DNA of 64,000 bases from Elusimicrobiota bacterium. Its GTDB lineage: Bacteria > Elusimicrobiota > Elusimicrobia > UBA1565. Below the pieces are notes generated by a model. The model saw nothing but the letters and a program-made list of their open reading frames with translations. It did no database searches and had not been told where the DNA came from. The first letter of the stretch is position 1, and the number at the start of each line of letters is the position of its first letter. The position numbers and the translations under genes are program-made. This document shows positions 12,001 to 26,138 of this stretch, piece by piece. Location: positions 28,779 through 92,778 of the forward strand of contig JACRDO010000132.1 in the NCBI GenBank assembly GCA_016212885.1, read 5' to 3'.

Positions 12001-15000
12001 GACCTTCGCCCCGCCGGTCTCCACCTCTCCATGGGTGGCGGTGTCGACCTATCTTCCCACGGCGCTGCTGGGCTGGGCGTCCGCTTCCTCCTACACCTTC
12101 ACCGGGCTCGCCAGCGCGACGACTTATTACGTCCGCGTCACGGTCCACGACAACTTGTCGAACCTCTCGCCTCCCTCGGATGTGGGGAAAGTGGCGGGTT
12201 TCGCGGTGGACGCCGCCACCTCGACCTACGGGAGCGTGTTCTTCTCCACCAAGAGCGTCGCGCCGGCTTCAGCCCTGCAGAATACCGACGTGGCGATGCT
12301 GAAGTTCATGCTCGCCACGCCCCTCGGCTCCAGCTCACAGTTCTACTCGCTGACCGTGCGCAAGACCGGCACGGCTCCGGATGCGGCGATGCAGAAAGCC
12401 CTCATCGCAATAGACAACAACGGCGACGGGATCTACACCAAGGGCGTGGACGCGGTGCTGGCCGAGGCGCCGTTCACGAACTCGGTGGCGACCCTCAGCC
12501 TGGCCGCGGCCGGCAACTCCGAGAATCTGGGGCCGGCCCTGAAGACGTTCTTCATCGCCTACCGGGTGACGACGGACGCCCAGCCCGGCCTCACCGTGGG
12601 AGTCGACAACATCACGGAGGCGGATTTCGGCCTCCAGTTCCCCTCGCGCGCGGAAGGCCCATTCCCCACCAATGTCCCGCTGATCCCGATCGCCGACGGG
12701 CCCAACGCGCTGACCGTGACGGCCTTCAACCTCGCCCCGGCCGAGGTCCAGCCCAACACCCTGAACGTCGCGCTCCTGCGCCTGAGCGCCGCGACGGACA
12801 CCGGCACGAGCATCATCTCGACCATGACGTGGCGGCTGCAGGCGAGCCAGCCCTTCAACCAGCTCACGGGCCTCACGCTCTGGCGCGACAAGAACGGCAA
12901 CGGGCTCTTCGAGCCGGGCATCGACGAGAGGGTGACCAGCGGCAACGACTCCTTCACGAACGGATACTCGACGATGGCCCTGACCACCCCGGAGATATCT
13001 TCGCGGACGGTGAAGACGTCCGCGGTCAACTACTTCCTGAGCGCGAACGTGAGCGCGAGCGCCCCGCAGGGGACGACCTTCAGGATCGCGCTGTCCACTC
13101 CGCCGGACGTGCGTCTGGAGAACCCGCTCGATACCGTAAGCTTCACGCAGATCCCCATCATCACGAGCAGCTGCACCATCATACAGAACAACATCGTCTG
13201 GATCTCGACCACGGATCTCTCGCCGGGAGCGTACGGCCAGACTTACTTCCAGGGGAACCTCTATTCGGTGCTTCGCGCGACGCTGAGCGTGGACATCGGT
13301 TTCGCGGAGATCAACCAGGTCACGATGGACCGGACCGGCGACGCGCAGCAGGACGACGTCCAGTACGTGGCGGTTTACAGGGACCAGAATCTCGACGGCG
13401 GACCCCTGAACCCGGTGGTGGATGTGTTTCTCGGCTCTGCGATGTTCGATCCTCTTAAGAAGGCCACCATCGATATCACCACGGCGACGGTCGCCGCGGG
13501 CGCGACGACGGTGTTCTTCATCGCCTATCAGATCAACCCCGCAGCCAGCCCCGGCCGCACGCTCGGCGGCTCCATGACGAACTCGAGCTACTTCCATACG
13601 TCCAATCCCGCGAGCGTCGTTTCGTCGGTCACGATGGATGGGAGCTCCCTCTTTGAGATCAAGACGGCCACCGCGCAGATCGAGGCGACGCAGAACCAGA
13701 TGAAGATCCCGCTCGCGCAGTCCGCGGCCCCCGGCGCGATCGACCAGGTGGCCAACGACATCGGGATGCTGCGCGTCGACATGGTTTCCGACCGCAACAA
13801 CTTCAACTGGCTGAGCCTCATCGTGCGGAGCATCGGAACCGCGCTGGATTCCGACGTCCGGAACGTGCGCGTATTCCGGGACGACGGAAACGGCCTCTTC
13901 TCGGCGTCCTCGGACACCGCCATCAGCGACATCTCCCAGACCTTCACCGGGGGCCAGGTCAACATCCCGCTCTCCATCCCGCAGGCCGTCACCGGCTCGA
14001 CGCAGACCTACTTCGTGACGCTCAGCCTCAACCCCTCGGCCGTGCCGGGAAGGACCGTGGGGGTGGTGATCCCCTCGACGGCGAGCTTCAATGTTAGCTC
14101 GCCGAACAAGGTCTCCAGCCAGACCGCGCTCGGGCCGTTCGCGGGCGGCCCGGTGGCGATCAACCAATTCGCGAACACCATCGCGGTCTCTACCCGCGGC
14201 ATCACGCCCCCGCTCGGCGCGGTCCCGGGGGCGAGGAACGTCGGCCTGCTCGATCTGACGCTCAAGACCAATGTCTCGAACGCGGGCTGGGCGGGACTCA
14301 AGATCGACCAGGCCGGGAGCGCGTCGGACTCGGACATCACCGAGGTGAAGGTCTACTACGACCTCAACAACAGCGGCTTCTTCGACCCCGCAAACACCCA
14401 GCAGTATCTCCTGGTCAGCTCCACCGGGCAGCGCTTCGGGCAGGTCCAGGCCGGCAGCGTGGACATCGTCTTCCCGAGCACCCCCTCGCTGGGCCCGGCC
14501 CCGCAGAGGTATTTCGTAGCCGTGGACCTCGCCGACGACGCGACGCCGGGCAAGACGGTGGCCCTGCGCGCCATCAGCAAGGACTACTTCGTTCCGGTGG
14601 CGCCCAACCAATTCGGTCCGGTGAGCTTCAACTCCCAGCCGCCTATGGACCAGGTCGAGATCAAGGCTCCGCCGGCGCTGATGTACGTCCTTGGAACCAG
14701 CTCCGCGCCGGCCGAAGTCGCGCAGGGCACCGCGAACGTCGTGATGGCGGCGCTGAAGGTCTGGATGTCGAGCTACACGGGGCAATGGACCCAGCTCAGC
14801 GTGGACCGCTCCGGCGCGGGCATCGACTCGGACATCAGCGGGGTCAAGCTGTTCTACGACACCAACGGCAACGGCCGGCTCGACGTCATGACGGACGAGC
14901 GGATCAGCACGGCGAGCTTCATCGGGGGCACGGCCGCCCTGATGTTCTCGACCCAGACGATCACGACCAGCTCGAGGACCTACTACCTGACCTACGACCT

Positions 15001-17077
15001 CTCCATGACCGCGGTCGGAGACCACGCCGTGGGGGCCGCCATCAACGCCCCCGGCCTGCTGGCCGTGGCCATGCCCAACAGCGTATCGAGCGACAACTTC
15101 CCGTTCGCGTCGGCCGCCTCGAGGGTCGTCACCACACGCGCGGACCTCTTCGTCGTGGGCCAGAACAAGGCGCCGGGCATGCTGATACAGGGCGCCACGA
15201 ACCAGGTGATGCTCAGCCTTCAACTGAGCACGACGGAGCATGCCATCCTCTGGAGCGGGCTCACCGTGCGCTCCTTGGGCACGGCCGCGGACTCGGACAT
15301 CAGCAGCGTGCACATATGGAAGGACGTCAACGCAGACGGCTTCCTGGAGGCGGACATGGACCAGGACATGACCTCCGGGCTCAACGGATTCCTGGGCGGG
15401 TCCGCGGTTGTAAGCCTGATCACCGCGCAGACGATCAGCATGGCTCCCATGCGCTACCTCGTGACGGTGGACGTGGCCAGCTGCGCCTCGCCCTCCGCGA
15501 GCTTCGGGCTTACGCTGGCAGCGACGAACGCCTTCTCCGTGAACGCCCCCAACACGGTCGTGGACTCAGGCTTCCCGATCTCGTCGGTCGTCGTCTCGCT
15601 CAAGAAGAGGGCGGAGCAGCTTCTCGTTTCGCCCTCGGACCTCGTGCCGGCGACCGGGATCAACCAGGGACTCGAGGCCTCCGTCGCCAAGCTCGCCTTG
15701 AGAGCCTCGCGCAACAAGGTGGGCTGGACCCAGGTGAGGCTCGCCCGGATCGGGACCCTCAGCGATTCGGACATCGAGGAGGTCCGCCTCTATCGCGACG
15801 AGGACGCTTCCGGGGCCCTCAGCCCCGCGGATATCCTCATCGGCGCCGGAACCTACAACTCGGGCTCGGCGTCCATCGTGTTCGCCCCCGCCTTCGTGCA
15901 GACGATCACCCTCTCGACCCAGACCTACCTCGTGTCCTACAAGATCAAGCCCTCGGCGACCGTCAATGCCGTCGTCGGGCTCACCGTGGCAGAGTTCACG
16001 GTCGACAACCCGGACAGCGTCTCGCTGACGGGCCTTCCGTTCTCGACTTCGCTCGCGAAGATCCTCGATTCCCGAACGCCGAGCCGGCCCGTCGTGACGG
16101 TGGCTGACGGCGCGTTCAGCAGCAAGTCCGAATACCTGCAGTTCAACTGGCAGTCGAGCGTAGTGCTCGGGTATCTGGCGGGCGCCTTCTACGCGATCGG
16201 AACCACCACGGGAGGGACCGACTTGACGAATGGCTTCAAGCCGATCCGGGTCTCTGAGCTCTCCGTCCGAGCGACGGGCTTTGTCTTGCAAGACCAAACG
16301 ATGTACTACGTCTCCGTGAAGACCCAGTCGAACGAAGGCTGGTTCAGCCCCGTAGGCACCTCGAACGGGGTCTTCATGGACTTCGTCATCCCGCCGACCC
16401 CCGCGGCCAAGATCCACCCCCCCGGGGAGAGCACGCTTCGGGTCAGCTGGGGCTCGGTGACCGGCGGGCTCTCGGGCATCGCCGGCTACCGCATCGAGTA
16501 CCGCCGGGCGCAGAGCCCCGTGTGGTACAACGCGAAGACCAAGCAGCCGATTTCTGAAACCGGAGTCTCGGCAGCCGGAATGGGCGGGAAGGGGCTGCGC
16601 GCCGCGGCTGTCTCGCCCGATGAGCTCGTCACCGGAGTCTCGTACCAGGCCACCGACATGCCAAGCGGAACATTGTACGTGCGCATGCGCGCGTTTTCAA
16701 CCGCGGGCCTGGCCAGCGCGCCGACCGACCCGGAGAAGGTCCAGATGGGGCCGCCGGGGACGGCGGCCATCAGCCAGATATCCTGCGCTCCCAACCCGTT
16801 CGACTCTCGAACAAAGCATGGGTGCATCGTGTACACCCTCAGCCAGGATGCCGACGTGACCATCAGCATCTTCAATGTCTTCGGCGGCCTAATTAAGACC
16901 ATGTCGTATTCGGCCGGGTCCGCCGGCGGGCAGAAGGGGACCACAGATATCACGGCCTGTCCGGTGTTCTGGGACGGGACCGACGAGTCGGGACAGAAGG
17001 TCTCCAAGGGCATCTATCTGGCGGTCATCCAGTCCGGCGGGGCCAAGGAAATCCTGAAGATCGGCGTCATCCACTAG
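1..17077 (+). CDS. Giant cell-surface repeat protein (adhesin-like), 5'-partial (>5686 aa). Domain order: Kelch repeats; FN3; two tandem FG-GAP + ASPIC/UnbV-like blocks each followed by FN3; four LamG (ConA-like lectin) domains; a YDG-type beta-propeller; about 12 tandem Ca-loop beta-sandwich repeats; FN3; T9SS-type / FlgD-Ig-like C-terminal sorting domain.
   Basis: Single uninterrupted ORF 17..17077 in frame 2. The first Met is inside a Kelch repeat unit (MTTARySLAAAA-GKVYAVGG recurs 5 times), so the gene continues upstream of the window. Recurrent AWGDYDNDGxLDLAV motifs (FG-GAP/VCBS-like), W(Q/H)HxAxTY..LY.NG motifs (LamG), a GRLYAG...IYxYDG propeller, and LGTxxDSDI...Y.D.N.NG.xD repeats. 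C-terminus is APNPF...WDGTDESGQKVSKGIYLAVIQ...KEILKIGVIH, typical of the T9SS CTD / FlgD Ig-like fold. Confidence 0.9.
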   Translation, partial: AAKAAMTTARYSLAAAALSGKVYAVGGMGGTQKENEEYDPAANTWASKALMTTARNSLAAAAVGGKVYAVGGTGGTEKENEEYDPNVNTWASKTAMTTARSGLAAAAVGGKIYAVGGSGPSGANEEYDPATNGWTSKTALTIARSGLAAAAVGGKIYAVGGTNGVVLSSAAEYDPGSNTWSARAQMPTARQQLALAATGGKLYALGGIGGANNENKEYDPGFSQKFTGLTPNTLYTFKARGRNASGAETPETPAISTYTLALAPGGLVAASSFTNVASTGVRVNWSSGTPAGYNPIGTLYRLELATAASFTTLAGSSQTYNTYAGLTGLTPSTKPYFARVEAISGAGIPTSWLSLGSLSSGTLQVTISTFAGTAGNSYAIAWGDYDNDGNPDLAVANYGLNILLLRNNGNGTFAQSTILATAGNYTGIAWGDTDNDGLLDLAVAVNVGDEFILHNDGGGAFTPNTLTGSGGNSYAVAWGDYDNDGRLDLAVANDLAQDDYVARNNGNGTFAIVPLTQTLGNSRGIAWGDYNNDGYLDLAIGNTDKDVVIVRNNNGVSFSTFAVTGSGFANGGIAWGDYDKDGYLDLAFALNTGIVVLRNNGGDGTFAKNTISAPGSNAGVAWTDYNGDGRLDLAVSRSGGQAQILLRNDGGVSFTTVTFAGSAGGAVRGFSLGNFDLSGGPDIALANDGGSDELLLHNDDQLAHAAPGAPSAGFSATLQEYSLFSSSGILALSWGNGTDAETSTAALRYLLRIGTTVAGSSTTCKIPAKFGLDAGASGGSFLYSTRISSAAAGLRLILQKETTVYWAVMTQDGEGLRSAESAEQTAFLAAPGLVTDLRVSAIVSTGLGASSMTVTLQWTAPGDNGYSGAITNGAFEIRCSTTEAILSTSAYAAAQVAVSLATSVVPGALQTHSIPYLNAAATHYFALTMKDGFGARSALSNPATAQSYVLRLPASAGNLYGLAWGDYDGDGRPDMALSYYGGSVVLMHNDGSGAFTQTTVPGTSGSNTGVAWGDFNSDGRLDLAVAVDGSDEYVLRNNGDGTFTNVPVTGSGGRSYAVAWGDYDNDGLLDLAVANETAQDDLIARNNGNGTFTLVPLTQTIGNSRGAAWGDFNNDGFLDLAIANTDKDVVLARNLGNGTFSTGTIGGTGVSTAAAWGDYNNDNYLDLAVANSDGVALMRNKGDGTFAKVWIAGTAGNNAGLAWADFNNNGFLDLLVSRPGGSAQLLLRNNGDGTFTQTLLPLPGSNVVNVSWGDFDADGDLDIAAGSRGWIDAFIFRNDAALAHNAPAAPVSGFSATFQEYAAFSSTGVLTLSWGDASDVETPTSALNYLVRAGTVVSGSSATLKIPFNYGLDGAAGGGSFPYGTRVSALQRGLKFAGFSKGATIYWAVAAEDGEALRSGESAEQTANLTPPASVNNLAAAQDAAVETSSVSWVRLTWTVPGENGTSNPLLPGARYDLRWSTVAPVALESDYNRAPNQSLIPADGESPGATHTQLLAVTAGKTYYFAMTTLDSCNSRSGLSNAANIPMTAWLQEVITDAAPPAALQGDTTAFLKLRLWTNLGSLSWTKLRVRKLGTLPDAAVKNVAIYGDANTNGIFDSGDTAALYSGVPAVFASSAVTLAVQTVGQTISNSTRTYFLTLQLEPSYLPQDGSTAALKLDGEAFSVIGGGVLGTDFPGLLLDGIDDRVRASDSAVLDPPNQITLDAWVRTTDPGPNRSIITHSNASGTDGYRLWLNGSTCGAGVPTLFIGPSVLCANRGGSPVSIADDRWHQVSAVYSIAGGLGQLMFIDGEMLSTGPVTGSISDSASELGVGGPNNYAGNYLNGKIDEARISQTARYTSSFIPWRRSDTDYNTVLQYHFDAMDGTGTVVTDAAGQVTGILDGQARGYGRSTATVVVDAQDMMMSSATSLLPDTLYRNAVNVPVLKLQLWASQDNVIINRLSVAQTGTGASAGVANLRLYRDNGDGYFQPTLDQSLTLGQVFSVNKATFDLLGATPPAPQQVWSSTKTYFVVWDVTGGAETGKSLGLAISTDDFVLAGATDAVSTAAFPLRASTVPVVSARVYVTPETPPSAWVNVSSLVFIGDFTLGNVDHFYYLFDQNPGTQINGGGSETLWTIGKATATATADGSSWYFHVRAFDYLGQGGTQTDFGPYFVDRTRPTGASFVHFNSTGGALGQSQVNDLAQPVTAQLSVQDSGAGLNVVGPAPLAPSPGTVSLWRLDDTSGAVWKDSGPASISLSSVGVVSRGAGRFGSGVLLAGSGDLRSASPAGLPTGAVPRAIEAWINPVSTQGTLGLVSWGTSGAGTLMRFSMVSGQLAADMGGITVSGGPVLSTGVWQHAAFSYDGSAARLYLNGALAASQSVGALATALGTLFIGATESGGRFWGSIDEVRIMNSALADGQVYDDCTRGHPYFVAFSSSAGSSWQVVVATGAGAGARVGLDGAHGSTGPQTLKVKGLPLNVSTSSAAGALATNQVIFYQTDRAGNTNILGPYGILVDTNPQVAYSTPILPGDGMYTGARPWFEWTGPSTAITAGMGGANGLGGSFYLQVSSNDPTFADPNIVLSISTPAIMGDNTLPKVYGVYLSTHSLGEGATYYWRIRSKSFLDVLGPWGPWKSFVVDASTPAAANYRMYSATGGVVLEGQYTDLMLGVTAQTTVTDNLSGFSKSFRFDPAAGTVALWHFSERDGLAPKDASGNNNTAALLGISGGPPGYRTSPFGAGLRCGGSHVFRTSNAQFDFPANSNMTFEAWVNPDDVSGIQALGGVGSVTFPGGNWLLRISDGRLFFSNNTGFINSPAMMSAGVWQHIAMTLRGARVAFYINGVQVAAGLSGSGGNSGGPSVQPFTLCAAVDNDGVTYQSPYSGMIDEVRVLNYAADPLQIAADYAATLSGIYAVEYSTTAGASWIVVSATAPASGWAHLELGGSEGSVGPEAWSVRNLQLVHSTSAAIGYQATNQIRFSVPDRAGNTRLSGPYAAIVDTTVAAAVSTPSYPANGAFLTQQPNFLWSGPSTKTASGMGLAASYFLEAAADPAFASPVISISTPVIIQSTFAAATFGAYLSTYTLMDATTYYWRVRSRDFLGLLSPPLSVSSFVTDLGAPAGSAFRSFNSTGGATAEDLVNNLTSNVTAYVTFQDPGSGLKVSPAAGAMPFGVIYSTTGGAGNSAWVDGGRTAEGGLPESWWDPTVATITALATFQSRLYAGAAGPGRTFEYDGTQWSQSGTFPSDVLTLKEFRGKLYAGLSGGSVYSFDGISWNLAASLPAARVNALAEHNGRLYAATGAEGQIFAFDPDAGGWYEVFRATEPEFFSLKSYNGRLFAGAGPDIYSFDGSTWTVTNWIGGSARAFEVYRGRLYAGTNISGYIYAYDGSVWTRPLDISEDFNRALGVFGGRLYLGASLPSNGRIYMYDGNTGPGGLLVYTLPTPADSIYAIASYGNRLYLGGTSPSGAKVYVSTPLAVSLTGLDGAKTPEQLKITGLNPIQSVNANICNGNWACTATNQVRFTAADQAGNIGQAGPFAILVDPSLSPPTALYPPSGSFVRSSSPTFVWAESSAMSIHNVQVSSQAAFTNLSLDSIANTPAYTSPVALANATTYYWQVRSRSPSGIYSAFSAVNAFVMDLSRPTTSVFLHFGSTGGPLAESQFGNLAAGVTVEITLQDIVSGLDRGPRRQPVSGAAALYPFDEGFGMYASGLGGEYRLAFSSGASWAPGLISSAVLTGGATYLYNASPNYNPAWPAVGLPIAGGTRTIEAWIYPLDGQGGGILHYSDFRLHISGSCSGPVPGNSYLCVNASQGAAYTFTPSQWHHVAYTYAGGTHTLYADGILLGSFQQMLNTPGAGPIFVGTATDCGAFRGRIDELRILAKALSAAEVDSGYRLSGAFRVSYSSDGGANWTVVTATAPAWGPHLVLSGPPGSTAPQTLRLENFSLAQSTILATGAYGTNQVVFSVSDQAGNEATAGPFTVLVQTSVPQPILTSLTPRSTESIFATAIATDPLSGVMEYRFEASPNKTFAPPVSTSPWVAVSTYLPTALLGWASASSYTFTGLASATTYYVRVTVHDNLSNLSPPSDVGKVAGFAVDAATSTYGSVFFSTKSVAPASALQNTDVAMLKFMLATPLGSSSQFYSLTVRKTGTAPDAAMQKALIAIDNNGDGIYTKGVDAVLAEAPFTNSVATLSLAAAGNSENLGPALKTFFIAYRVTTDAQPGLTVGVDNITEADFGLQFPSRAEGPFPTNVPLIPIADGPNALTVTAFNLAPAEVQPNTLNVALLRLSAATDTGTSIISTMTWRLQASQPFNQLTGLTLWRDKNGNGLFEPGIDERVTSGNDSFTNGYSTMALTTPEISSRTVKTSAVNYFLSANVSASAPQGTTFRIALSTPPDVRLENPLDTVSFTQIPIITSSCTIIQNNIVWISTTDLSPGAYGQTYFQGNLYSVLRATLSVDIGFAEINQVTMDRTGDAQQDDVQYVAVYRDQNLDGGPLNPVVDVFLGSAMFDPLKKATIDITTATVAAGATTVFFIAYQINPAASPGRTLGGSMTNSSYFHTSNPASVVSSVTMDGSSLFEIKTATAQIEATQNQMKIPLAQSAAPGAIDQVANDIGMLRVDMVSDRNNFNWLSLIVRSIGTALDSDVRNVRVFRDDGNGLFSASSDTAISDISQTFTGGQVNIPLSIPQAVTGSTQTYFVTLSLNPSAVPGRTVGVVIPSTASFNVSSPNKVSSQTALGPFAGGPVAINQFANTIAVSTRGITPPLGAVPGARNVGLLDLTLKTNVSNAGWAGLKIDQAGSASDSDITEVKVYYDLNNSGFFDPANTQQYLLVSSTGQRFGQVQAGSVDIVFPSTPSLGPAPQRYFVAVDLADDATPGKTVALRAISKDYFVPVAPNQFGPVSFNSQPPMDQVEIKAPPALMYVLGTSSAPAEVAQGTANVVMAALKVWMSSYTGQWTQLSVDRSGAGIDSDISGVKLFYDTNGNGRLDVMTDERISTASFIGGTAALMFSTQTITTSSRTYYLTYDLSMTAVGDHAVGAAINAPGLLAVAMPNSVSSDNFPFASAASRVVTTRADLFVVGQNKAPGMLIQGATNQVMLSLQLSTTEHAILWSGLTVRSLGTAADSDISSVHIWKDVNADGFLEADMDQDMTSGLNGFLGGSAVVSLITAQTISMAPMRYLVTVDVASCASPSASFGLTLAATNAFSVNAPNTVVDSGFPISSVVVSLKKRAEQLLVSPSDLVPATGINQGLEASVAKLALRASRNKVGWTQVRLARIGTLSDSDIEEVRLYRDEDASGALSPADILIGAGTYNSGSASIVFAPAFVQTITLSTQTYLVSYKIKPSATVNAVVGLTVAEFTVDNPDSVSLTGLPFSTSLAKILDSRTPSRPVVTVADGAFSSKSEYLQFNWQSSVVLGYLAGAFYAIGTTTGGTDLTNGFKPIRVSELSVRATGFVLQDQTMYYVSVKTQSNEGWFSPVGTSNGVFMDFVIPPTPAAKIHPPGESTLRVSWGSVTGGLSGIAGYRIEYRRAQSPVWYNAKTKQPISETGVSAAGMGGKGLRAAAVSPDELVTGVSYQATDMPSGTLYVRMRAFSTAGLASAPTDPEKVQMGPPGTAAISQISCAPNPFDSRTKHGCIVYTLSQDADVTISIFNVFGGLIKTMSYSAGSAGGQKGTTDITACPVFWDGTDESGQKVSKGIYLAVIQSGGAKEILKIGVIH
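1090..4600 (+). repeat. Internal tandem duplication inside the giant gene: two consecutive units of about 1.75 kb, each encoding about 10 FG-GAP repeats, an ASPIC/UnbV-like module and an FN3 domain.
   Basis: Near-colinear protein blocks. Example: AWGDYDNDGRLDLAVANDLAQDDYVARNNGNGTFAIVPLTQTLGNSRGIAWGDYNNDGYLDLAIGNTDKDVV compared with AWGDYDNDGLLDLAVANETAQDDLIARNNGNGTFTLVPLTQTIGNSRGAAWGDFNNDGFLDLAIANTDKDVV. The HNxxxAHxAPxAPxSGFSATxQEY...YWAV..DGEALRSxESAEQT module occurs at about nt 2090-2470 and again at about nt 3840-4210. Confidence 0.8.
12180..16060 (+). repeat. Array of about 12 tandem beta-sandwich repeats of about 110 aa inside the giant gene, each with a DxNxNGxxD calcium-binding-like loop (CARDB/Calx-like adhesin repeats).
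   Basis: Periodic recurrence of the motifs ...LS(V/L)xRSG(T/A)..DSDIxxVK(L/V)(F/Y)xDxNxNGxxD...TYY(L/V)T... Confidence 0.7.
16790..17077 (+). other. C-terminal sorting domain of the giant protein (T9SS type A CTD / FlgD Ig-like).
   Basis: Last ~95 aa: ISCAPNPFDSRTKHGCIVYTLSQDADVTISIFNVFGGLIKTMSYS...CPVFWDGTDESGQKVSKGIYLAVIQSGGAKEILKIGVIH. It carries the (Y/A)PNPF start, the WDGxDxxGxxVxxGxY core and a Lys-rich beta-strand end. Confidence 0.65.
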
Positions 17078-17168
17078 CACCCCTGAGAAGCGCTGAAATA
17101 TCCTGATTTTTTCGAGCCCCGGAATTCCGAAGTTTCCTCATGATTTCTTCGTGATTTAAGCCGATCCG

Positions 17169-17186
17169 CCGCTAAACTAATAGCGG
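17169..17186 (+). promoter_or_regulatory. Inverted repeat CCGCTA-aactaa-TAGCGG (6-bp stem, 6-nt loop) 10 nt upstream of the ATG of the PorV/PorQ-like gene. It overlaps the only purine-rich (GGGGA) candidate Shine-Dalgarno sequence and may control translation initiation.
   Basis: Read directly from the sequence ...tccgCCGCTAaactaaTAGCGGggacggactATG. It sits in a 118-bp AT-richer intergenic spacer after the giant gene. Confidence 0.3.
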
Positions 17187-17195
17187 GGACGGACT

Positions 17196-18773
17196 ATGTT
17201 CGCAAGGTTTATTCCATTGGCGCTTCTGGCTCTGGCGCTGCGGGCCTCGCCCGCGTGGGCCCAGGCGATCGGAGGCCAGCCCGGCGAGATATTCTCCTTC
17301 GGGGCCGGGGCCCGGGCGCTCGCCATGGGCTCGGCCTACACGGCCGTGGTCAACGACGTATCTTCGGTCTACTACAACCCCGCCGGGCTCGGGCTTCTGC
17401 CGGCGCGGGAGATCTCCCTCATGCGGGCGTTCCTCTACGGGGATGCGACCTACGACTACATCGCCTACGCGCAAAACAACCGCAAGAACGCCGGCGGCTG
17501 GGGCGCCGAGTTCATCCAGTTCAAGGTCGGCGGGGCGAGCGGGCGCGACCAGGACAACAACGAGACCGGGCAGTTCGGCTACTCTGAAAGAGCCTTCGGC
17601 CTCGCGGCAGCCTGGCGCGGGCTCCTGCACCCGCGGCTCTCCCTCGGCGCCAAGGTGAAGATGATGCAGCGCGGCTTCAGCGGCGCCGGCAACGCCGCCT
17701 CCGACAGGCTCTTTGGCATCGACTTCGGCGCGCAGATGGGGCCGTGGGTCGGCGAGCGCCTCATGCTCGGACTCATAGTGCAGAATGTGATGGGCTTCAA
17801 GCAGGGCGACACGGAGGATTCCCTCAAGCTGCTGCTGCGCCTCGGCGCGGCCTACAAGGTCATCGGGCCGCTCTCCGTCGCGGCCGATGTCTCCAACAAC
17901 AGGGAGTTCCGCGTGGGGACGGAGTACTCCATCGGGTTCCTGGCTCTCCGGGTCGGCCTCGCCCAGCAGGGCATGACCTTCGGCGGAGGGCTGCTCTTCA
18001 AGAACCGTTATTCCGTGGACCTGGCGATGCTCAACCATCCGACCCTCGGCATGTCGCAGAGGATCTCGCTCGGCTACCGGTTCGCCGGCGCCGCGGGCGC
18101 GGGCGAGAAGTCGAAGAAGATGCGGTTCTACGCCGAGGAGTTCCTCGCCAACGCCCAGGCCGAGCTGAAGAAGAGGAACTACCTCAAAGCCCTCAACGAC
18201 TTCTCCGCCGGCCTCGGCATCGACCCCAAGCGCGGGGCCGAGTGGCGCTCGAAGACCGACCGCCTGCGCCGGCTCCTCAAGCGGATGGGCCTCGAGGCCC
18301 ATCCGGAGGACAGCGCCACGCTCGCAGAGGACTCGCAGCCCGCCGTCGTAGCTTTCGCGGCCATAGAATCCTACATGGGCCGGGAGGAGGAGCGGGCGAT
18401 GACTCTGGCCCACGCGGCGGTCGGCCTGGATACCGCCAAGGGCGCCTTCGGACGGCTGCTCGACTCGCTGGCAGCGCTGACGGGACATGCGATCCAGCGC
18501 GACCAGCTCCTGCCGCCGCTGCGGCTGGCGGAGTTCAAGATGAAGCGGGCCATGGACGCCATCTATGCCCGCAGGTTCGAGGCGGCCGTGACCCTGCTTC
18601 GCGAAGCCCTCTGGCTCGACCCCGGCAACGTCATGGCCTGGACCCGGCTCGGCTCGGCCTTCTTCGCCTCCGGGGACCGCCCGAAGGCCGCGGAGGCGTA
18701 CCGAGAGGCGCTCCGGCTCAACCCGGCCGATGAGAAGCTGAGGCAGTTCGTCAGGTCCCAGGGGTTGGAGTAA
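17196..18773 (+). CDS. Outer-membrane PorV/PorQ-family-like beta-barrel protein with a C-terminal TPR repeat domain (525 aa).
   Basis: Signal peptide MFARFIPLALLALALRASPAWAQ. N-terminal hallmark GARALAMGSAYTAVVNDVSSVYYNPAGLG (the PorV/PorQ/FadL-like motif G.R.LAMGGAY.A..D.SA.YYNPAGL). Alternating beta-strand pattern to about residue 305. C-terminal ~220 aa is TPR-like (AWTRLGSAFFASGDRPKAAEAYREALRLNP). Lies directly 3' of a CTD-bearing giant protein. Confidence 0.6.
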   Translation: MFARFIPLALLALALRASPAWAQAIGGQPGEIFSFGAGARALAMGSAYTAVVNDVSSVYYNPAGLGLLPAREISLMRAFLYGDATYDYIAYAQNNRKNAGGWGAEFIQFKVGGASGRDQDNNETGQFGYSERAFGLAAAWRGLLHPRLSLGAKVKMMQRGFSGAGNAASDRLFGIDFGAQMGPWVGERLMLGLIVQNVMGFKQGDTEDSLKLLLRLGAAYKVIGPLSVAADVSNNREFRVGTEYSIGFLALRVGLAQQGMTFGGGLLFKNRYSVDLAMLNHPTLGMSQRISLGYRFAGAAGAGEKSKKMRFYAEEFLANAQAELKKRNYLKALNDFSAGLGIDPKRGAEWRSKTDRLRRLLKRMGLEAHPEDSATLAEDSQPAVVAFAAIESYMGREEERAMTLAHAAVGLDTAKGAFGRLLDSLAALTGHAIQRDQLLPPLRLAEFKMKRAMDAIYARRFEAAVTLLREALWLDPGNVMAWTRLGSAFFASGDRPKAAEAYREALRLNPADEKLRQFVRSQGLE

Positions 18774-18792
18774 CAAAAAGGCAATGAAAGCC

Positions 18793-18810
18793 CCGGCTTT
18801 TTCCTGCATA
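18793..18810 (+). terminator. Weak candidate intrinsic terminator or attenuator (short GC stem AAAGCC..GGCTTT followed by a T5 run) between the PorV-like gene and the histidine-kinase-FliG gene.
   Basis: gaAAGCCccGGCTTTTTcc, read from the sequence. The stem is short with a tight loop, so partial termination at most. Confidence 0.2.
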
Positions 18811-18811
18811 C

Positions 18812-21331
18812 TTGAGCGGTGACATGGACGCTGTCATCATCGTCCTGATCCCGGTGCTGTTCCTGACGCTGGCGGCCAGCATGCTGGTCGTCAGCCAGGT
18901 TTCCGGCTTCTTCCAGTCCAACAAGTACTCCCGCAAGCGCCAGCAGGACCGCATGGAGATCCAGCGGTTCATGGCCCAACTGGCCGGCGCGCAGAGCCAG
19001 GTCTTTGCGCGCAGCAAGGAGCTCGAGCGGCTCTCGGCGAACCTGCAGCTCAGCAACCAGGAGCTGGCCCGGCTCAACAGCATGAAGACGAAGTTCCTGT
19101 CGATGGTTGTCCACGATATGAGGACCCCGCTTGCCTCCATCAAGGGGTTCGGCGAAATGCTCAGCCGCCAGACGCTCCCGGCGCAGCAGACGAAGTATGT
19201 GAACTATATCGTCAGCGGCACGGACCAGATCAACCAGCTGATGGCCGACCTCACGGACCTCGCGGTCATCGAAGCAGGCAAGCTCAAAATGGAAAAGCAG
19301 CCATTCGCCTTGTCCGACATGGTCAATGACCTCGTGCCCGGGATTGGCCTGCAGGCGCAGAAGAAGGGCGTGATTTTCACGGCGCCGGAGCCGCCGCGGG
19401 GGATCACCGTAATCGGGGACAGCTTCCGTCTGCGCCAAGCGCTCCAGAACTTCCTCACCAACGCGGTCAAATTCACCCCCGCGGGGGGAAAAGTCGAGCT
19501 GAGGGTCAGCGTGGGCCCGCGGGGCGCGCTGTTCCAGGTCAAGGACACGGGCCCGGGCATCCACGCCTCCGAGCGCAAGCGCATCTTCGAGAAGTTTTAC
19601 CAGTCGCAGTTCGGGGACCCGAAGGCGCGCCAGAAGGGCTGGGGGCTCGGCCTCTCGATCGCGCAGGAGATCATCCGCTCGCACCAGGGGGAGATGGGGG
19701 TGGATTCCGCCGGGCTCGGCAAGGGCGCCACCTTCTGGTACCGCATCCCGCTCAAGCCCTCCAGGATGGCGGCCTACGCGCTCGCAAAGACCGCGGCGGC
19801 CGTCCTCCTGCTGGCCCTGCTCCTGCCGGGGGCCCGGGCCCAGCAGACGCTCCCGATCGAGGAGAAGGCGAAGTTCGAGAAATCCCTCGAGGACCGCGCC
19901 AACACGATCCTGCTCCACATCCTGGGGCCCAACCGCGGGCGTGTCGTAGTCGACGCCACGCTCGACTTCACCCGCATCGAGAAGTTCGACGTCAAGAGCG
20001 GAGCCGTATCGCCTGACCGGGAGACCCTCTACCTCTGGGAGAAGGTGGGAGCCCAATCGGGCGGCCAGGACCTGCTCCCGGGCATCCCGCCCCAGGAGCA
20101 GCTGCCGAACGCGAACCTGGCGCGCTCCTACGAGCGGCAAAACTCCTTCCCGACGGCCTTTATCAAGAGACTCAAGGTGACGGTTATCTTGGACGGCGCT
20201 GTCGGCGCCGACCAACGCAAGATCATCACGGATGCCCTGACGGAGGCTCTCGACCTCAAGAAAGATCGGGGAGTGGATGCAAACGGCTTCACGCTCAAAG
20301 ACGAAATGCTGATCGTTCCCGCCACCTTCGCCCCCGCATGGAAGACGGTCTGGTACACCCCGGAATCCGCAAGCCTCCTCTTCAAATACGCGCTCATCAG
20401 CCTGATGACGCTGATCACCCTCATCGTCGTCGCGGCCTGCTTCCTGAAGCTCGCGGAGGCGATGGACTCGATGGCGCAGGCGCAGGCCCATCAGCTCCAG
20501 ATGGACTTCGGCCAGCAGGGCGCCGACCTCGCCGGGAAGGAAGAGGAGGAGAAGAAGAAGAAGGAGGAGGAGGCCAAAGCCGAGAGCGCGGAGGCCGCCT
20601 CCACCAAGATCGTCTTCAACGTCAAGGTGGAGCAGATCGAGACGCTCATCGAGATGGTGCGCAGCCAGGACGCGGAGAACATCTCCCTCATCGCCGCGCA
20701 CCTCCCGCCCGACGTCAAGAAGGCGTTCCTGGCCAAGCTCCCGCCGAGCGTCTACAGCGAGGTGATCTTCTATCTCGGCCGCGTGCGCTTCATCGACCAG
20801 GAGGTTGTCTCCACCGTCAAGGACGAGCTGGAGCGGCGCCTGGAGAGCGCGGTCGGCGGCCGGTCGAACCTCCTCGGCATGATCGAGGCCTCGGACCTCA
20901 AGTCCAAGCGCGAGCTCCTCAAGCTGCTCGAGGAGCGCGACCCCGACCTTGCGCGGCAGCTGCGCGAGCAAATCCTGCTCTTCGAGGACCTCTCGGACCT
21001 CGAGGAGAAGGACTGGTCCTTGGTCTTCTCGGTCGTCACGCTCGAGGAATGGGCCTTCGCGCTCTACGATGCCCCGGAGGATCTGGTCGAGGCGCTCAAG
21101 AGCCAGATGCTTCCGAAGACCTGGGCCATCCTGTCCCAGATGATGCAGGTGGGCCGTCCCTCGGAAAGGGCCATCGAGGAGGCGCACGAGCGCATCGTCA
21201 ACTCGGTCTGGAAGCTGGTTCAGGACGGCCGCATCACCAACCCCATCACCCGCCGCATCGAGCGCATGGCCGCCCGGCCGAAGGAAGAGGGCCCTCCCCC
21301 CTTGGTCGAGGGCGCCGCGGAGCTGGGCTAG
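18812..21331 (+). CDS. Fusion protein (839 aa): N-terminal TM helix + sensor-less histidine kinase (HisKA + HATPase_c) - TM helix - ~180-aa periplasmic domain - TM helix - acidic/Lys-rich linker - FliG middle and C-terminal (motor torque) domains. Overall FliF-FliG-like topology.
   Basis: H-box SMVVHDMRTPLASIKGFGEML. N/G boxes FLTNAVKFTPAGGKVELRV...DTGPGI...GWGLGLSIAQEII. Hydrophobic helix AAAVLLLALLLPGARA. Periplasmic segment with KVTVILDGAVGADQRKIITDALTEAL. Second TM LLFKYALISLMTLITLIVVAACFL. EEEEKKKKEEEAKAE linker. FliG_M-like ENISLIAAHLPPDVKKAFLAKLPPSVYSEVIFYLGRV. FliG_C-like LLFEDLSDLEEKDWSLVFSVVTLEEWAFALYDAPEDLVEALKSQMLPKTWAILSQMMQVGRPSERAIEEAHERIVNSVWKLVQDGRI (compare FliG ...FEDI..LDDR.IQ..LREVD...LALALK....EL.EK...NMS.RA...L.ED.E.LGPVRLKDVEEAQQKIIN..R.LEE.GEI). 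No stop codon separates the kinase and FliG parts. The ATG at 18824 is an alternative start. Confidence 0.75.
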   Translation: MSGDMDAVIIVLIPVLFLTLAASMLVVSQVSGFFQSNKYSRKRQQDRMEIQRFMAQLAGAQSQVFARSKELERLSANLQLSNQELARLNSMKTKFLSMVVHDMRTPLASIKGFGEMLSRQTLPAQQTKYVNYIVSGTDQINQLMADLTDLAVIEAGKLKMEKQPFALSDMVNDLVPGIGLQAQKKGVIFTAPEPPRGITVIGDSFRLRQALQNFLTNAVKFTPAGGKVELRVSVGPRGALFQVKDTGPGIHASERKRIFEKFYQSQFGDPKARQKGWGLGLSIAQEIIRSHQGEMGVDSAGLGKGATFWYRIPLKPSRMAAYALAKTAAAVLLLALLLPGARAQQTLPIEEKAKFEKSLEDRANTILLHILGPNRGRVVVDATLDFTRIEKFDVKSGAVSPDRETLYLWEKVGAQSGGQDLLPGIPPQEQLPNANLARSYERQNSFPTAFIKRLKVTVILDGAVGADQRKIITDALTEALDLKKDRGVDANGFTLKDEMLIVPATFAPAWKTVWYTPESASLLFKYALISLMTLITLIVVAACFLKLAEAMDSMAQAQAHQLQMDFGQQGADLAGKEEEEKKKKEEEAKAESAEAASTKIVFNVKVEQIETLIEMVRSQDAENISLIAAHLPPDVKKAFLAKLPPSVYSEVIFYLGRVRFIDQEVVSTVKDELERRLESAVGGRSNLLGMIEASDLKSKRELLKLLEERDPDLARQLREQILLFEDLSDLEEKDWSLVFSVVTLEEWAFALYDAPEDLVEALKSQMLPKTWAILSQMMQVGRPSERAIEEAHERIVNSVWKLVQDGRITNPITRRIERMAARPKEEGPPPLVEGAAELG

Positions 21332-21334
21332 GCT

Positions 21335-22459
21335 ATGGCGGAGAAAGTCGACTTCCTTCTCGCCTCCCTGCGCGGCCAGCCACCGCCCGAGGCCCCGCCG
21401 TCCGTCGAGGCCCAGGCGGCTGCGGCCGCCTCGGAAGAGCAGCTCGCCCCTCTGCGCTCGAAGGTCGAGGAGCTCGAGCGCAAGCTCGCCGAGCTCTCGG
21501 CGCCGCCCGCCCCGCCGGAAGGCGCGGAGGCTCCGGCGGAGCCGCCCAAGCCGCCGACCGAACTGATGATGTTCCTGCACACGCGCATGGAGCTTCTCGA
21601 GCGCCGCCTGGAGCTCGCCCAGCAGGAGGCCCTGCGGGCCAACCTGGTCCTCCGCGAGCGCGAGGAAGCGCAGAAGAAGGCCCAGGGCGAGGTCGAGGAG
21701 CTCTTCCGCTCGATCCGCGAGCAGGAGCGCTCGGCCCGCTTCGACCGGAGGCTGCGCGAGCAGTACTCCGCGACCCACTCCCGCGTGGAGGAGCTGGAGG
21801 CCCGGCTGGCCATGGCCCAGCTGCGCATGGTCCCCGCCGACGAGGTTCTCCGGTCTATCGAGAGGGAGGAGGGCTTGGGCGAGCTCCGTTCCCGGCTGAA
21901 GGAGCAGCTTTCAAGGATGTCCGGGGGGGAGCCGTCCGTCGGCGCCCCGGCGCCGGCCCCGCCCCCAGCGCCTCCGGCAGGGGCCCCGGACCGGCCCGAG
22001 GGACCCGCACGGCCCGCGCAGGACGCCCCGTTCAACTATAGCGAGCTTCCGCCCCTTTCCATCGTGACGGCCAAGATCGCCGATCTTGAGCTTCGGCTCG
22101 CGGAGGCCGAGAAAGCCCGCGAGAAGGAGCGCCAAAGCCGCCTCCTCTGGGAGAACAACGTCCTTCAGGCGCTCCGGCAGTCCTCCGGCCGCTGGCAGAA
22201 AGCCGGCGGAGCCGGGCTTCTGGTGGAGGCGACTTTGGAGAGTATGGTAGAGTTGCTCAAGAAGAGGGACCTCCTCGCCGGGGAGACGGCTCAGATCCTG
22301 GACAGGCTCCGGTCCGAGCCGCCGGGCTCGGGGGAGGAGCCCCTCCTGCGGGCGCGGCTCGCGGAGCTGCGCAAGAGCATCGAAGAGCTCCAGGGCGAGC
22401 TCGACAAGAAGATGGCGATCGTCAACGCCTGGACCGAGCGGAATAAAGGCAAGGATTAA
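21335..22459 (+). CDS. Coiled-coil protein with Pro/Ala-rich low-complexity segments (374 aa). Possibly a FliH-like or scaffold component of the adjacent motor genes.
   Basis: ORF starts 3 nt after the FliG-fusion stop and ends 1 nt before motA (TAAATG). Heptad-rich segments (LRSKVEELERKLAELS, LELAQQEALRANLVLREREEAQKKAQGEVEEL, IADLELRLAEAEKAREKERQ). No recognizable catalytic motif. Confidence 0.5.
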   Translation: MAEKVDFLLASLRGQPPPEAPPSVEAQAAAAASEEQLAPLRSKVEELERKLAELSAPPAPPEGAEAPAEPPKPPTELMMFLHTRMELLERRLELAQQEALRANLVLREREEAQKKAQGEVEELFRSIREQERSARFDRRLREQYSATHSRVEELEARLAMAQLRMVPADEVLRSIEREEGLGELRSRLKEQLSRMSGGEPSVGAPAPAPPPAPPAGAPDRPEGPARPAQDAPFNYSELPPLSIVTAKIADLELRLAEAEKAREKERQSRLLWENNVLQALRQSSGRWQKAGGAGLLVEATLESMVELLKKRDLLAGETAQILDRLRSEPPGSGEEPLLRARLAELRKSIEELQGELDKKMAIVNAWTERNKGKD

Positions 22460-23197
22460 ATGGACATTACGACACTCTCCGGCATCGTCGGCGTCTTAGC
22501 CATGGTGCTCATCGGGGGCTTCACCGGCGAGCTCTCCGCGGTCTTCCTGAACGCGCACGGCATCGTGATCGTCTTCGGCGGGACCGCCGTCGCCATGCTC
22601 ATCAATACGCCGCTGCGCTATGTTCGGGAGACGCTCCTGGCGTTGGCGGAGCTCTTTCGGGGAGACCGCTTCAGCGACCCGGGCGAGCTGATCCCGGTGC
22701 TGGTGCGCCTTTCCGAGCAGGTCCAGGCGCACGGACTCGGGGCCCTGCGGGGCATCGACGAAAGGGCCGCGGGCGGCTTCCTCGGCCAGGCCGCCACCAC
22801 TGCGATGGAGTACAACAACCCCGACTTCGTCCGGCGCGTGCTGGAGACCGAGGTCAACAACAGGGTGGACCGGGCCAACGAGGTCATCAACGTGGTCCGC
22901 ACCATGGGCGTTGTCGCACCGATGTTCGGCCTGCTCGGCACCCTCATCGGCATCGTGCGGGTCATGGCCGTGCTCACCGACCCGGTGAAGGTCGCCCCGG
23001 CCATGGCTGTCGCCATCACCACGGCCTTCTACGGCATCGCCTTGGCCAACCTGGTGGCGGTCCCCATGGCCGGCAAGATGCGCTTCAGGCTGTGGGAGGA
23101 GATCAAGGTCCGGGCGATGGTCATTGAGGGCGTCATCGGCATGATGCAGGGCACGGTCCCCCTGGTGCTCGAGCGCCGCCTGCAGGCTTTCAAATAG
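22460..23197 (+). CDS. motA: MotA/PomA-family stator proton-channel subunit (MotA/TolQ/ExbB superfamily), 245 aa.
   Basis: Four-TM architecture with a large cytoplasmic loop between TM2 and TM3. C-terminal signature TTAFYGIALANLVAVPMAGKM. N-terminus MDITTLSGIVGVLAMVLIGG typical of MotA. Confidence 0.85.
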   Translation: MDITTLSGIVGVLAMVLIGGFTGELSAVFLNAHGIVIVFGGTAVAMLINTPLRYVRETLLALAELFRGDRFSDPGELIPVLVRLSEQVQAHGLGALRGIDERAAGGFLGQAATTAMEYNNPDFVRRVLETEVNNRVDRANEVINVVRTMGVVAPMFGLLGTLIGIVRVMAVLTDPVKVAPAMAVAITTAFYGIALANLVAVPMAGKMRFRLWEEIKVRAMVIEGVIGMMQGTVPLVLERRLQAFK

Positions 23198-23200
23198 ATC

Positions 23201-23881: not shown

Positions 23882-23897
23882 TATAATCTGCCGGCCC

Positions 23898-26132: not shown

Positions 26133-26138
26133 CCGAAG

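Follow-up and report, generated by a model that had tools for sequence, protein, structure and literature searches.

A PorV-family outer-membrane barrel fused to a TPR domain and linked to flagellar-type motor genes in Elusimicrobiota

What is the role of an outer-membrane barrel with a tetratricopeptide tail whose gene lies between that of a giant surface protein and a set of motor-like genes? A locus in the genome of an Elusimicrobiota bacterium raises this question, and we analyzed it within a 64-kb stretch of contig DNA, referred to below as the window (Table 1). A preliminary description of the locus had pointed out that known PorV/PorQ proteins are stand-alone barrels, and it considered both the TPR fusion and the placement of the gene atypical.

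Table 1. Genes and domains of the barrel-TPR locus, in window coordinates
Feature	Position	Strand	Details
Giant secreted surface protein, presumed cargo/adhesin	2..17077	+	5' end beyond the left edge of the window
Beta-sandwich C-terminal domain (CTD) of the giant protein	16793..17074	+	terminus ...WDGTDESGQKVSKGIYLAVIQSGGAKEILKIGVIH-COOH
Focal barrel-TPR ORF	17196-18773	+	525 aa; ATG start; Shine-Dalgarno GGGGA ~8 nt upstream
Predicted signal peptide of the focal protein	17196..17264	+	residues 1-23, AWA/QA; read off the sequence
PorV/PorQ-family domain	17265..18083	+	residues 24-296; N-terminal plug motif, then 14-stranded beta-barrel
C-terminal TPR domain	18114..18758	+	residues 307-521; 12 helices
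Kinase-FliF-FliG fusion	18812..21331	+	three TM segments; cytoplasmic HisKA+HATPase_c, residues ~84-316; periplasmic FliF RBM3-like, ~345-525; cytoplasmic FliG_M+FliG_C, ~611-809
Coiled-coil Pro-rich cytoplasmic protein	21335..22459	+	374 aa; no family match
MotA/PomA-type stator A subunit	22460..23197	+	4 TM
MotB/MotD-type stator B subunit	23201..23881	+	plug and OmpA-like peptidoglycan-binding domain
OmpR-type regulator (Trans_reg_C)	23898..24593	+	divergent receiver-like N-terminus

A PorV-family barrel with a C-terminal TPR domain

The focal open reading frame is genuine; its GC3 is 0.91, compared with 0.66 for an overlapping antisense shadow frame of 545 aa. The NCBI model of the protein (P0001, 518 aa) starts seven codons further downstream. 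By inspection, the N-terminus, MFARFIPLALLALALRASPAWA followed by QA, resembles a Sec signal peptide, and beyond it we recovered the PorV/PorQ-type signature reported in the preliminary description, with the plug motif GAGARALAMGSA...YYNPAGLG at the beginning of the domain and the invariant F296 at the end of the barrel. Profile searches covered the families that had been named there. The NCBIfam profile PorV_fam (NF033709) gave 80.8 bits, slightly under its curated cutoff of 90 bits (E 1.3e-22, profile positions 7-326 of 326), and Pfam UPF0164 gave 27.7 bits (gathering score 21.4). All 32 aligned members of the family match NF033709 (best E 2e-46), two relatives of the focal protein (P0094 and P0119) have been named 'PorV/PorQ family protein' by NCBI, and in a comparison of the family profile with solved structures the sole non-TPR match was PorV (6h3i_F, E 3.3e-10). 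The family carries the N-terminal PorV/PorQ motif G.GAR...MG.A....D....Y.NPAGL together with the barrel-core residues. In agreement with the barrel expected over residues 25-305, the AF2 model of the focal protein (pLDDT 88.8) contains an N-terminal plug segment and 14 beta-strands, the barrel occupying residues ~30-296.

More specific assignments were not obtained. The focal protein scores 19.4 bits against the PorV equivalog NF033710 (cutoff 250) and 49.7 bits against the PorQ equivalog NF033711 (cutoff 220), it has no Pfam or NCBIfam match to PorP/SprF at E<=1, and it does not reach the 29.7-bit Pfam cutoff of FadL/OMPP1/TodX (PF03349). A FadL-type transporter of hydrophobic small molecules, bearing its TPR tail by chance and surrounded by functionally unrelated genes, is a disfavoured reading that we regard as very improbable.

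The C-terminal ~220 aa, which had been called TPR-like, indeed form a TPR domain, with a helical-hairpin fold in which TPR_1, TPR_2 and TPR_16 each score above the Pfam cutoffs. Its most conserved element is helix 10 (AWTRLGSAFFA, residues 479-491), which belongs to the last repeat pair. Since the domain comes after strand 14 of an even-stranded barrel, the standard outer-membrane topology rule places it, on the model, in the periplasm. We conclude that the focal protein consists of a PorV-family 14-stranded barrel and a C-terminal TPR domain. Similarly, in BcsC, PgaA and PelB an outer-membrane barrel and a periplasmic TPR region that reaches toward an inner-membrane machine are parts of the same polypeptide; however, these proteins have the reverse order (TPR N-terminal, barrel C-terminal) and another barrel type, and they serve polysaccharide export. 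No sequence match of the focal protein to such TPR-porin exporters was found in Pfam or NCBIfam.

Multiple alignment separates the residues common to the wider family from those specific to the fused proteins. In particular, R40, G45, Y59, N61-L65, G151, K155, D176, G178, G217, G241, E243, R252, G254, G263 and D275 are 87-100% common to 62 stand-alone relatives, whereas only the fused family has invariant extracellular tips, L2 and L4 (R117, 100% vs 34%; T206, 100% vs 27%). On genomic grounds, namely the CTD-bearing gene directly upstream and these invariant tips, the barrel is a predicted binder of the cargo CTD at the cell surface.

The giant upstream protein and its C-terminal domain

Directly upstream, where a CTD-bearing giant gene had been proposed, we found a frame encoding more than 5,686 aa inside the window, which continues upstream, as no stop codon occurs before position 17. 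The protein contains Kelch, 13 FG-GAP, Laminin_G_3 (LamG) and fn3/Ig-like domains, and a complete giant homologue in locus L003 carries a Sec signal peptide. Its 94-aa CTD, which is of T9SS-like type, matches FlgD_ig with 34 bits (gathering score 27) and, below threshold, Por_Secre_tail (19.9 bits) and CHU_C (17.2 bits); matches to the C-termini of PorU and PorZ are weak. In a homology search with this domain, which gave six short matches, the closest homologues have precomputed PF18962 assignments. The terminal motif K[IV]GV[IV][HR]-COOH was detected in 15 ORFs; each of them precedes a fused barrel-TPR gene, and stand-alone loci have none, so that the KIGVIH tail is specific to the CTDs beside fused barrels.

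No SprA/Sov-like translocon, PorU-like sortase, PorZ or PorK/L/M/N is encoded within the 64-kb window. For the outer-membrane passage of a protein of >5,600 aa, the window offers no translocon gene.

PorV and PorP-like proteins are CTD-binding 14-stranded barrels of the FadL family, sprB adjoins sprF, and the TPR-bearing PorE binds PorP (PMC9143113). Compared with the T9SS outer-membrane shuttle PorV of F. johnsoniae (6H3I) and with PorQ, the focal protein differs in its C-terminal TPR domain, in its own invariant extracellular loop motifs and in its Elusimicrobiota host, and its window lacks SprA, PorU and PorZ. The SprB-SprF and PorP-PorE-PG1035 systems of type-B CTD anchoring (PMC9143113) likewise have a giant repetitive adhesin gene with that of its cognate 14-stranded FadL-family barrel directly behind it, and likewise combine the barrel with a periplasmic TPR element (PorE) and a link to a proton-driven motor. 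However, in PorE the TPR resides on a separate lipoprotein and not in cis, and the motor of these systems is GldLM/PorLM, in place of the flagellar-type FliG/MotAB found here. PorW, which joins translocon and motor-driven ring (PMC8754138), offers a functional likeness only: the focal protein would likewise be a periplasmic adaptor from outer-membrane cargo handling to the motor apparatus, but PorW is a separate and much larger lipoprotein.

Rotor and stator components encoded downstream

The motor-like genes that had been noticed downstream encode a FliF/FliG fusion as well as MotA and MotB. The fusion gene probably starts at the ATG at position 18824 (NCBI model, 835 aa). Its periplasmic domain matches YscJ_FliF_C with 24.5 bits (cutoff 23.8), and a Foldseek search with the model of the protein retrieved FliF RBM3/S-ring structures and FliG_MC. 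The stator A subunit aligns end to end with solved flagellar MotA (116 bits), and the MotA_ExbB, MotA_N, MotB_plug and OmpA matches are all above cutoff.

With the flagellar MS-ring/C-ring and MotAB the cluster thus has in common the RBM3-like domain, FliG_M/C with its Gly-Gly hinge, MotA, and MotB with plug and OmpA domains. Differences are equally evident. The flagellum uses separate FliF and FliG, whereas here a single small protein unites them, often together with a histidine kinase. FliG_N and RBM1/2 are absent from it, the FliM-binding EHPQ is replaced by QDAE, and true FliGs score only ~50 bits, as against at least 255 bits among members of the rotor-protein family. The torque-helix charges have also diverged: in the clade of the window the FliG helix reads KTW...SQMM (canonical KR...DE) and the MotA segment VQAHGLGALR (canonical ARREGVLALE). 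The canonical rotor-stator charges are not kept in this clade, and classical torque generation is therefore not to be assumed. No other flagellar genes occur in the window; FliM/FliN and the genes for export gate, rod, hook and filament are missing from the cluster.

The coiled-coil protein encoded between rotor and stator is kept in the closer clusters, and elsewhere its length ranges from 246 to 1,012 aa. The OmpR-type regulator, an uncertain member of the system, may act as partner to the fused kinase; response regulators also adjoin the cluster in loci L003 and L004. The genes of the cluster are 0-38 nt apart and all its ORFs are intact, with GC3 ~0.9. A promoter/terminator scan of positions 16900-26300 gave no signal above chance.

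Distribution and gene neighbourhood of the family

The barrel-TPR fusion is a conserved Elusimicrobiota family. The best 150 matches of an exhaustive search include about 70 full-length clusters at 50% identity, and the fusion is kept full-length down to about 25-30% identity. For the synteny survey we collected 86 loci and restricted the motor count to those whose sequence extends 7.5 kb or more downstream. Motor genes are present in 17/17 fused loci of this kind, with both MotA and MotB in 15 of them, whereas MotA occurs in only 3/39 stand-alone loci of other phyla (Fisher p=6e-9), and two of these three, L036 and L037, are by inspection divergent fused forms. The order giant protein, barrel-TPR, FliG-like gene was found in all six contigs inspected, and MotA/MotB in all four inspected contigs having called genes that far downstream. 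At least two paralogous copies of the cluster exist within one MAG (L006 and L007). In L003 the cluster also includes a FlgO/CsgG-like lipoprotein, and in L005 it includes FlbD.

The upstream side is more variable. In most lineages the fused barrel directly follows a giant gene, a linkage found in about 15/26 loci. In a divergent subfamily (L014, L016, L018-L023), however, the motor genes persist while the 10 kb upstream contain no giant gene, so that linkage to the cargo is less general than linkage to the motor. This difference would speak for an explanation in which the barrel-TPR protein acts mainly as a stator/motor scaffold, anchored in the outer membrane, with the TPR recruiting and positioning either the rotor ring or the MotB stators and the giant protein only loosely related. 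The TPR proteins PflA and PflB do so in Campylobacter-type flagellar motors. The scaffold role also accords with the conservation of the last repeat pair, as expected for a conserved periplasmic partner, and with the flagellar outer-ring/stator accessories (FlgO/CsgG-like lipoprotein and FlbD) in some clusters. Nevertheless, it leaves unexplained the extracellular hairpin tips invariant specifically in the fused family, the restriction of the KIGVIH subtype to CTDs beside fused barrels, and the output of the motor, and we consider it improbable.

These data divide the earlier claim of an atypical placement into two parts. The CTD gene upstream is not unusual, since 20/55 stand-alone relatives from other phyla have a CTD-like domain encoded just ahead of the barrel gene and the sprB-sprF pair is arranged in the same way; the motor genes are. 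Similarly, the statement that known PorV/PorQ proteins stand alone holds for the characterised proteins of Bacteroidota but not for uncultivated phyla, where PorV-family barrels with C-terminal TPR, OmpA or Ig-type (FlgD_ig) extensions recur. As the CTD-then-barrel order is common in the wider family and periplasmic extensions are also found elsewhere, the novelty lies in the motor linkage and not in the fusion. Truly atypical is the strict co-occurrence of the TPR-fused subfamily with the FliF/FliG-fusion rotor and MotAB.

In the literature searched, neither a PorV-TPR/FliG/MotAB cluster nor a T9SS in Elusimicrobia is described, and a paper on MotAB evolution does not mention Elusimicrobia (PMC12505986). 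Free-living Elusimicrobiota mostly lack flagellar structural genes, yet they possess motAB, flbD and fliG sets that have not been explained (bioRxiv 10.1101/2022.07.08.499144). This reported absence would suit functionless remnants of a decaying flagellum, and the match of MotB to ZorB models (up to 86 bits) would suit an anti-phage module like Zorya with its MotAB-like ZorAB. We disfavour these explanations as extremely improbable. MotB scores higher against flagellar MotD (155 bits), and the ORFs are intact with high GC3; the same architecture persists across deeply diverged members, and paralogous copies coexist in one MAG, which argues for selection rather than decay. Zorya defence was rejected: MotA has no match to ZorA (PADLOC), ZorC and ZorD are absent, and the similarity of ZorB to MotB is only generic.

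Possible function of the cluster

We give about even odds to a conserved envelope machine, specific to Elusimicrobiota, whose outer-membrane subunit would be the focal protein, with the barrel holding the adhesin CTD and the TPR coupling it to the motor. In such a machine the barrel would bind the CTD of the giant protein at the surface through the invariant hairpin tips GRDxxN and G.T.D.L, and the adhesin would be held non-covalently, by analogy with SprF-SprB, PorP-PG1035 and PorV with its cargo. The TPR would hang in the periplasm, its conserved last repeats docking on the RBM3 ring or on the periplasmic domain of MotB, and would provide in cis what, in Bacteroidota, PorE or PorW provide in trans. 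The FliF/FliG ring would be turned by protons flowing through MotAB, the work being passed on to the barrel-adhesin unit, possibly under control of the fused kinase. The most likely output would be an adhesin moved or tensioned along the surface, resulting in gliding-type motility or surface attachment dynamics; this would be akin to SprB-SprF/PorP-PorE/PorW gliding, though with flagellar components. Genomic evidence and structure prediction support this machine, the CTD-barrel and TPR-motor contacts being putative. A point against the coupling is length, since a normal periplasm plus cell wall may be more than the ~220-aa TPR and the RBM ring together can bridge.

Alternatively, the FliF/FliG-MotAB motor could drive the giant protein through the outer membrane, just as PorLM/GldLM power the T9SS. 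The barrel-TPR protein would then be a receptor or shuttle, whose TPR captures unfolded or CTD-bearing cargo and whose barrel receives it at the surface. However, the cluster has no translocon-sized barrel, folded domains do not fit through a barrel of 14 strands, and the motor genes remain in the subfamily without an adjacent giant gene. We therefore hold a secretion engine to be rather unlikely, although it is compatible with the adhesin-coupling machine and both could be true. We tentatively propose, with less than even confidence, that non-flagellated free-living Elusimicrobiota have a rotary envelope machine not described before, in which a minimal motor of flagellar origin would be coupled by the TPR to a CTD-anchored giant adhesin and would propel or secrete it.

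Implications

On a conservative reading, the analysis defines a sizeable protein family that has so far been annotated only as 'tetratricopeptide repeat protein', and it provides a testable context for the several motAB/fliG/flbD sets, of enigmatic role, in mostly non-flagellated free-living Elusimicrobiota (bioRxiv 10.1101/2022.07.08.499144). If the coupling is true, flagellar rotor and stator parts would be at work outside the flagellum, which would bear on the origin of the flagellar motor and on the modularity of 5:2 ion-driven motors; the cluster would show, in extant cells, a flagellar rotor/stator at work without export apparatus, rod, hook or filament. The T9SS logic of CTD cargo plus FadL-type barrel would then reach beyond Bacteroidota, into a phylum without a described T9SS, and the hybrid of flagellar and T9SS parts would represent a third, independently assembled route to adhesin-based gliding or secretion. 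It would also hint at how ultra-small groundwater bacteria may handle adhesins of 2,000-16,000 aa.

PorV-like barrel fused to a TPR domain

The preliminary description of the barrel-TPR gene, as a PorV/PorQ-type protein with a signal peptide and a TPR-like C-terminal part, proved essentially right. Behind the signal peptide (AWA-QA), residues ~30-296 cover the whole NCBIfam profile NF033709 (PorV/PorQ family) at 80.8 bits (E 1.3e-22), slightly below the cutoff of 90 bits, and the protein exceeds the gathering score of Pfam UPF0164. A profile of 32 family members matched the solved PorV chain 6h3i_F (E 3.3e-10) as its sole non-TPR match in PDB, and all 32 match the PorV_fam, PorQ and PorVQ2 models (best E 2e-46). 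Structure prediction bears out the barrel: the AlphaFold model from the 32-member alignment (pLDDT 88.8, pTM 0.73) has an N-terminal plug segment, 14 beta-strands (residues 72-295) and 12 helices (residues 307-521), and the C-terminal part exceeds the cutoffs of TPR_1, TPR_2 and TPR_16. The TPR domain comes after the last of an even number of barrel strands (strand 14), which by the usual topology of outer-membrane proteins should put it in the periplasm. Canonical T9SS PorV and PorQ were ruled out by equivalog scores far under cutoff, and the protein fits best into the PorV/PorQ family in the broad sense, as a member with a TPR extension. An Elusimicrobia MAG encodes an identical protein, annotated merely as 'tetratricopeptide repeat protein'.

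The GC3 value is 0.91 in this gene vs 0.66 in the overlapping antisense 545-aa ORF, which is a shadow ORF. The table lists the shadow ORFs (GC3 0.60-0.66, GC1 0.84-0.90) together with the real genes at their sites; such ORFs are typical of genomes with high GC, here 66.6% over the window.

Features of the window around the barrel-TPR gene
Feature	Position	Strand	Remarks
Giant gene	runs off left end of window		>5,686 aa within window; upstream of barrel-TPR
Barrel-TPR	17196-18773	+	525 aa; ATG start, GGGGA ribosome-binding site ~8 nt upstream
Shadow ORF	17172-18809	-	opposite barrel-TPR
Rotor fusion protein	18812-21331	+	839 aa; three TM segments
Coiled-coil, Pro-rich protein			374 aa; second downstream gene
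MotA/PomA-type stator subunit	22460-23197	+	
MotB/MotD-type stator subunit			downstream of MotA; plug + OmpA domain
OmpR-type regulator	23898-24593	+	fifth downstream gene; then MFS transporter
AAA_14/DUF4143 ATPase	26649-28004	-	
Shadow ORF	26685-27200	+	at ATPase gene
Shadow ORF	27432-27962	+	at ATPase gene
Probable secreted protein	30527-33283	-	918 aa
Probable secreted protein	33339-34217	+	292 aa

Full-length barrel-TPR proteins (about 500-545 aa) are kept in hundreds of clusters, to about 30% identity, and when 1.84 billion representatives were searched exhaustively by HMM, ~70 end-to-end matches stood among the best 150. In a set with a single genome for each species, almost all full-length matches bear the label Elusimicrobia or Elusimicrobiota, and the barrel alone is matched in Zixibacteria, WOR-3, Poribacteria, Latescibacteria, Krumholzibacteria, FCPU426, Aerophobetes, Cloacimonadota, KSB1, Ignavibacteria, Saganbacteria and others. 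Barrel-core residues are common to fused and stand-alone relatives; the tips of the long extracellular hairpins, L2 (G116-R117-D118..N121) and L4 (G204.T206.D208.L210) are invariant in the fused family only. TPR helix 10 (AWTRLGSAYFA) is much better conserved than the remaining helices (0.80 vs about 0.5).

One MAG has two or more complete clusters that are paralogous (L006, L007; both GCA_016196755.1, JACPXC01), with barrel-TPR proteins 40% and 55% identical to that of the window, and another MAG (L003, L058; JACQBA01) encodes both fused and stand-alone barrels. Two fused barrel-TPR/motor clusters (L012, L036) lie in CAYFRM01, a MAG with the label 'uncultured Clostridia bacterium'. Clostridia are not expected to have an outer-membrane barrel, so the genome is probably Elusimicrobiota-like and either wrongly labelled or wrongly binned.

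The fusion had also been considered atypical, a view that did not hold. PorV-family barrels of other uncultivated phyla carry C-terminal periplasmic domains, as TPR (L027; L032, Saganbacteria; L044, Zixibacteria), OmpA-like peptidoglycan-binding (L060 and L070, Cloacimonadota) or FlgD_ig (L034, WOR-3) extensions, and fusion as such is therefore a recurring theme. Neither FliG nor MotAB was found near these six extended barrels, and what is distinctive is the combination of this TPR subfamily with its motor. The extensions, which include a TPR array of 929 aa among shorter ones, resemble PorP-PorE-like pairings made in cis.

Giant upstream protein

The giant protein contains Kelch, 13 FG-GAP, Laminin_G_3 and fn3/Ig-like domains, and it closes with a CTD-like beta-sandwich of ~95 aa that has an above-cutoff FlgD_ig match (34 bits), sub-threshold Por_Secre_tail and CHU_C matches and weak matches to PorU and PorZ C-termini; precomputed PF18962 matches exist for its closest homologues. 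The upstream giant proteins have in common a CTD with the terminus K[IV]GV[IV][HR]-COOH; 15 ORFs carry this motif, each of them preceding a fused barrel, and it was seen nowhere else in the loci examined. One cargo homologue that is complete begins with a Sec signal peptide. The L002 cargo, called as 16,036 aa (L002 1-9725; JGI 3300024263 Ga0209978_10000025), ends in ...RKIGVVR and has no Pfam matches on record. Some clusters have small CTD-only genes (about 90-145 aa) between the giant and barrel-TPR genes (L004 9604-9999, L007 ~9630-9938), and similar stand-alone mini-proteins occur in metagenomes (P0198-P0203); conceivably they act as a cap or a competitor, or are gene fragments.

Conserved linkage to motor genes

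The location between a CTD gene and motor-like genes, as first described, was confirmed; a CTD neighbour is not in itself atypical: of 55 stand-alone relatives from other phyla, 20 have a CTD-like domain encoded immediately before them, and sprB-sprF is a known case (PMC9143113). The order giant protein, barrel-TPR, FliG-like protein is found in all six contigs of relatives at 31-47% identity (giant proteins of 2,250, 4,082+, 6,438, 6,886, 6,920 and 16,036 aa), followed in long enough contigs by an unknown protein, MotA and MotB; the kinase is variously fused, separate or absent. FlbD directly precedes MotA in one locus (L005 16698-16913), and a FlgO/CsgG-like lipoprotein follows MotB in another (L003 17906-18757). 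Among 86 loci, with fused loci counted only if they had at least 7.5 kb downstream, motor genes accompany 17/17 fused barrels (MotA and MotB together in 15), whereas MotA occurs in 3/39 stand-alone loci, two of them divergent fused forms (Fisher p = 6e-9). In a more divergent subfamily (L014, L016, L018-L023) the motor genes persist, and the nearest 10 kb contain no giant gene.

In the window, five genes follow barrel-TPR with gaps of 38, 3, 0, 3 and 16 nt. The first encodes a protein with a HisKA/HATPase_c kinase in the cytoplasm, a periplasmic domain passing the YscJ_FliF_C cutoff, and FliG_M and FliG_C, again cytoplasmic; its model matches FliG_MC structures (E~1e-9) and the FliF RBM3/S-ring (E~1e-4, TM-target ~0.5). 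This single polypeptide naturally fuses a histidine kinase to a mini-FliF, whose one RBM3-like periplasmic domain lies between two TM helices, and to the middle and C-terminal domains of FliG. Such proteins make up a family of their own in Elusimicrobiota, without FliG_N (72 clusters at >=255 bits vs about 50 bits for true FliGs).

Compared with T. maritima FliG, the Gly-Gly hinge is retained, QDAE replaces the FliM-binding EHPQ, and the torque-helix charges KR...DE...R are changed to KTW...SQMM. Similarly, the canonical charged motif of MotA that faces the rotor, ARREGVLALE in a solved MotA, is VQAHGLGALR in the window's clade, and among the MotA genes of L003-L023 more distant clusters keep AKKEGFLALQ-like motifs, also AHKQGILQLE; the changes may reflect co-ordinated interface divergence. 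MotA gave no ZorA-type match, and the 374-aa protein no family match. Both rotor and stator have a flagellar origin, yet they do not make up a flagellum.

The OmpR-type regulator may be the partner of the rotor-fused kinase; its N-terminal half is receiver-like (LAVVDWDAV), with no Pfam Response_reg match even at E<=10. The remaining window genes are housekeeping. Two probable secreted proteins, whose N-termini resemble signal peptides, gave no match in Pfam.

Possible mechanism

From the observed architecture, homology, predicted folds and synteny we infer how the parts could be coupled. The barrel would hold the CTD of the giant protein at the surface via its invariant extracellular tips, as PorV, PorQ and PorP/SprF barrels hold CTD partners (PMC9143113). 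The periplasmic TPR domain would be an in-cis adaptor docking onto the RBM3 ring or MotB, whereas PorE/PorW supply the adaptor in trans (PMC9143113, PMC8754138). A pure stator-scaffold role for barrel-TPR is improbable. MotAB-driven rotation of the FliF/FliG ring would then do work on the barrel-adhesin unit, with adhesin movement (gliding-like), secretion or tensioning as candidate outputs; the variant in which the motor is a secretion engine seems rather unlikely, though less so than the scaffold. We give the coupled anchor about an even chance. Its weaknesses are the diverged rotor-stator charges, the subfamily without an adjacent giant gene and the lack of a translocon in view, and the periplasmic distance may be too great for the TPR domain and RBM ring to span.

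According to Uzun et al. (bioRxiv 10.1101/2022.07.08.499144), most free-living Elusimicrobiota lack flagellar structural genes, yet have numerous motAB, flbD and fliG homologues of 'enigmatic' role. No description of the barrel-TPR/FliG/MotAB cluster was found in the literature searched, and a system that pairs a rotor and stator of flagellar type with a cargo and an anchor resembling those of the T9SS appears undescribed. This barrel-TPR motor system merits experimental follow-up.
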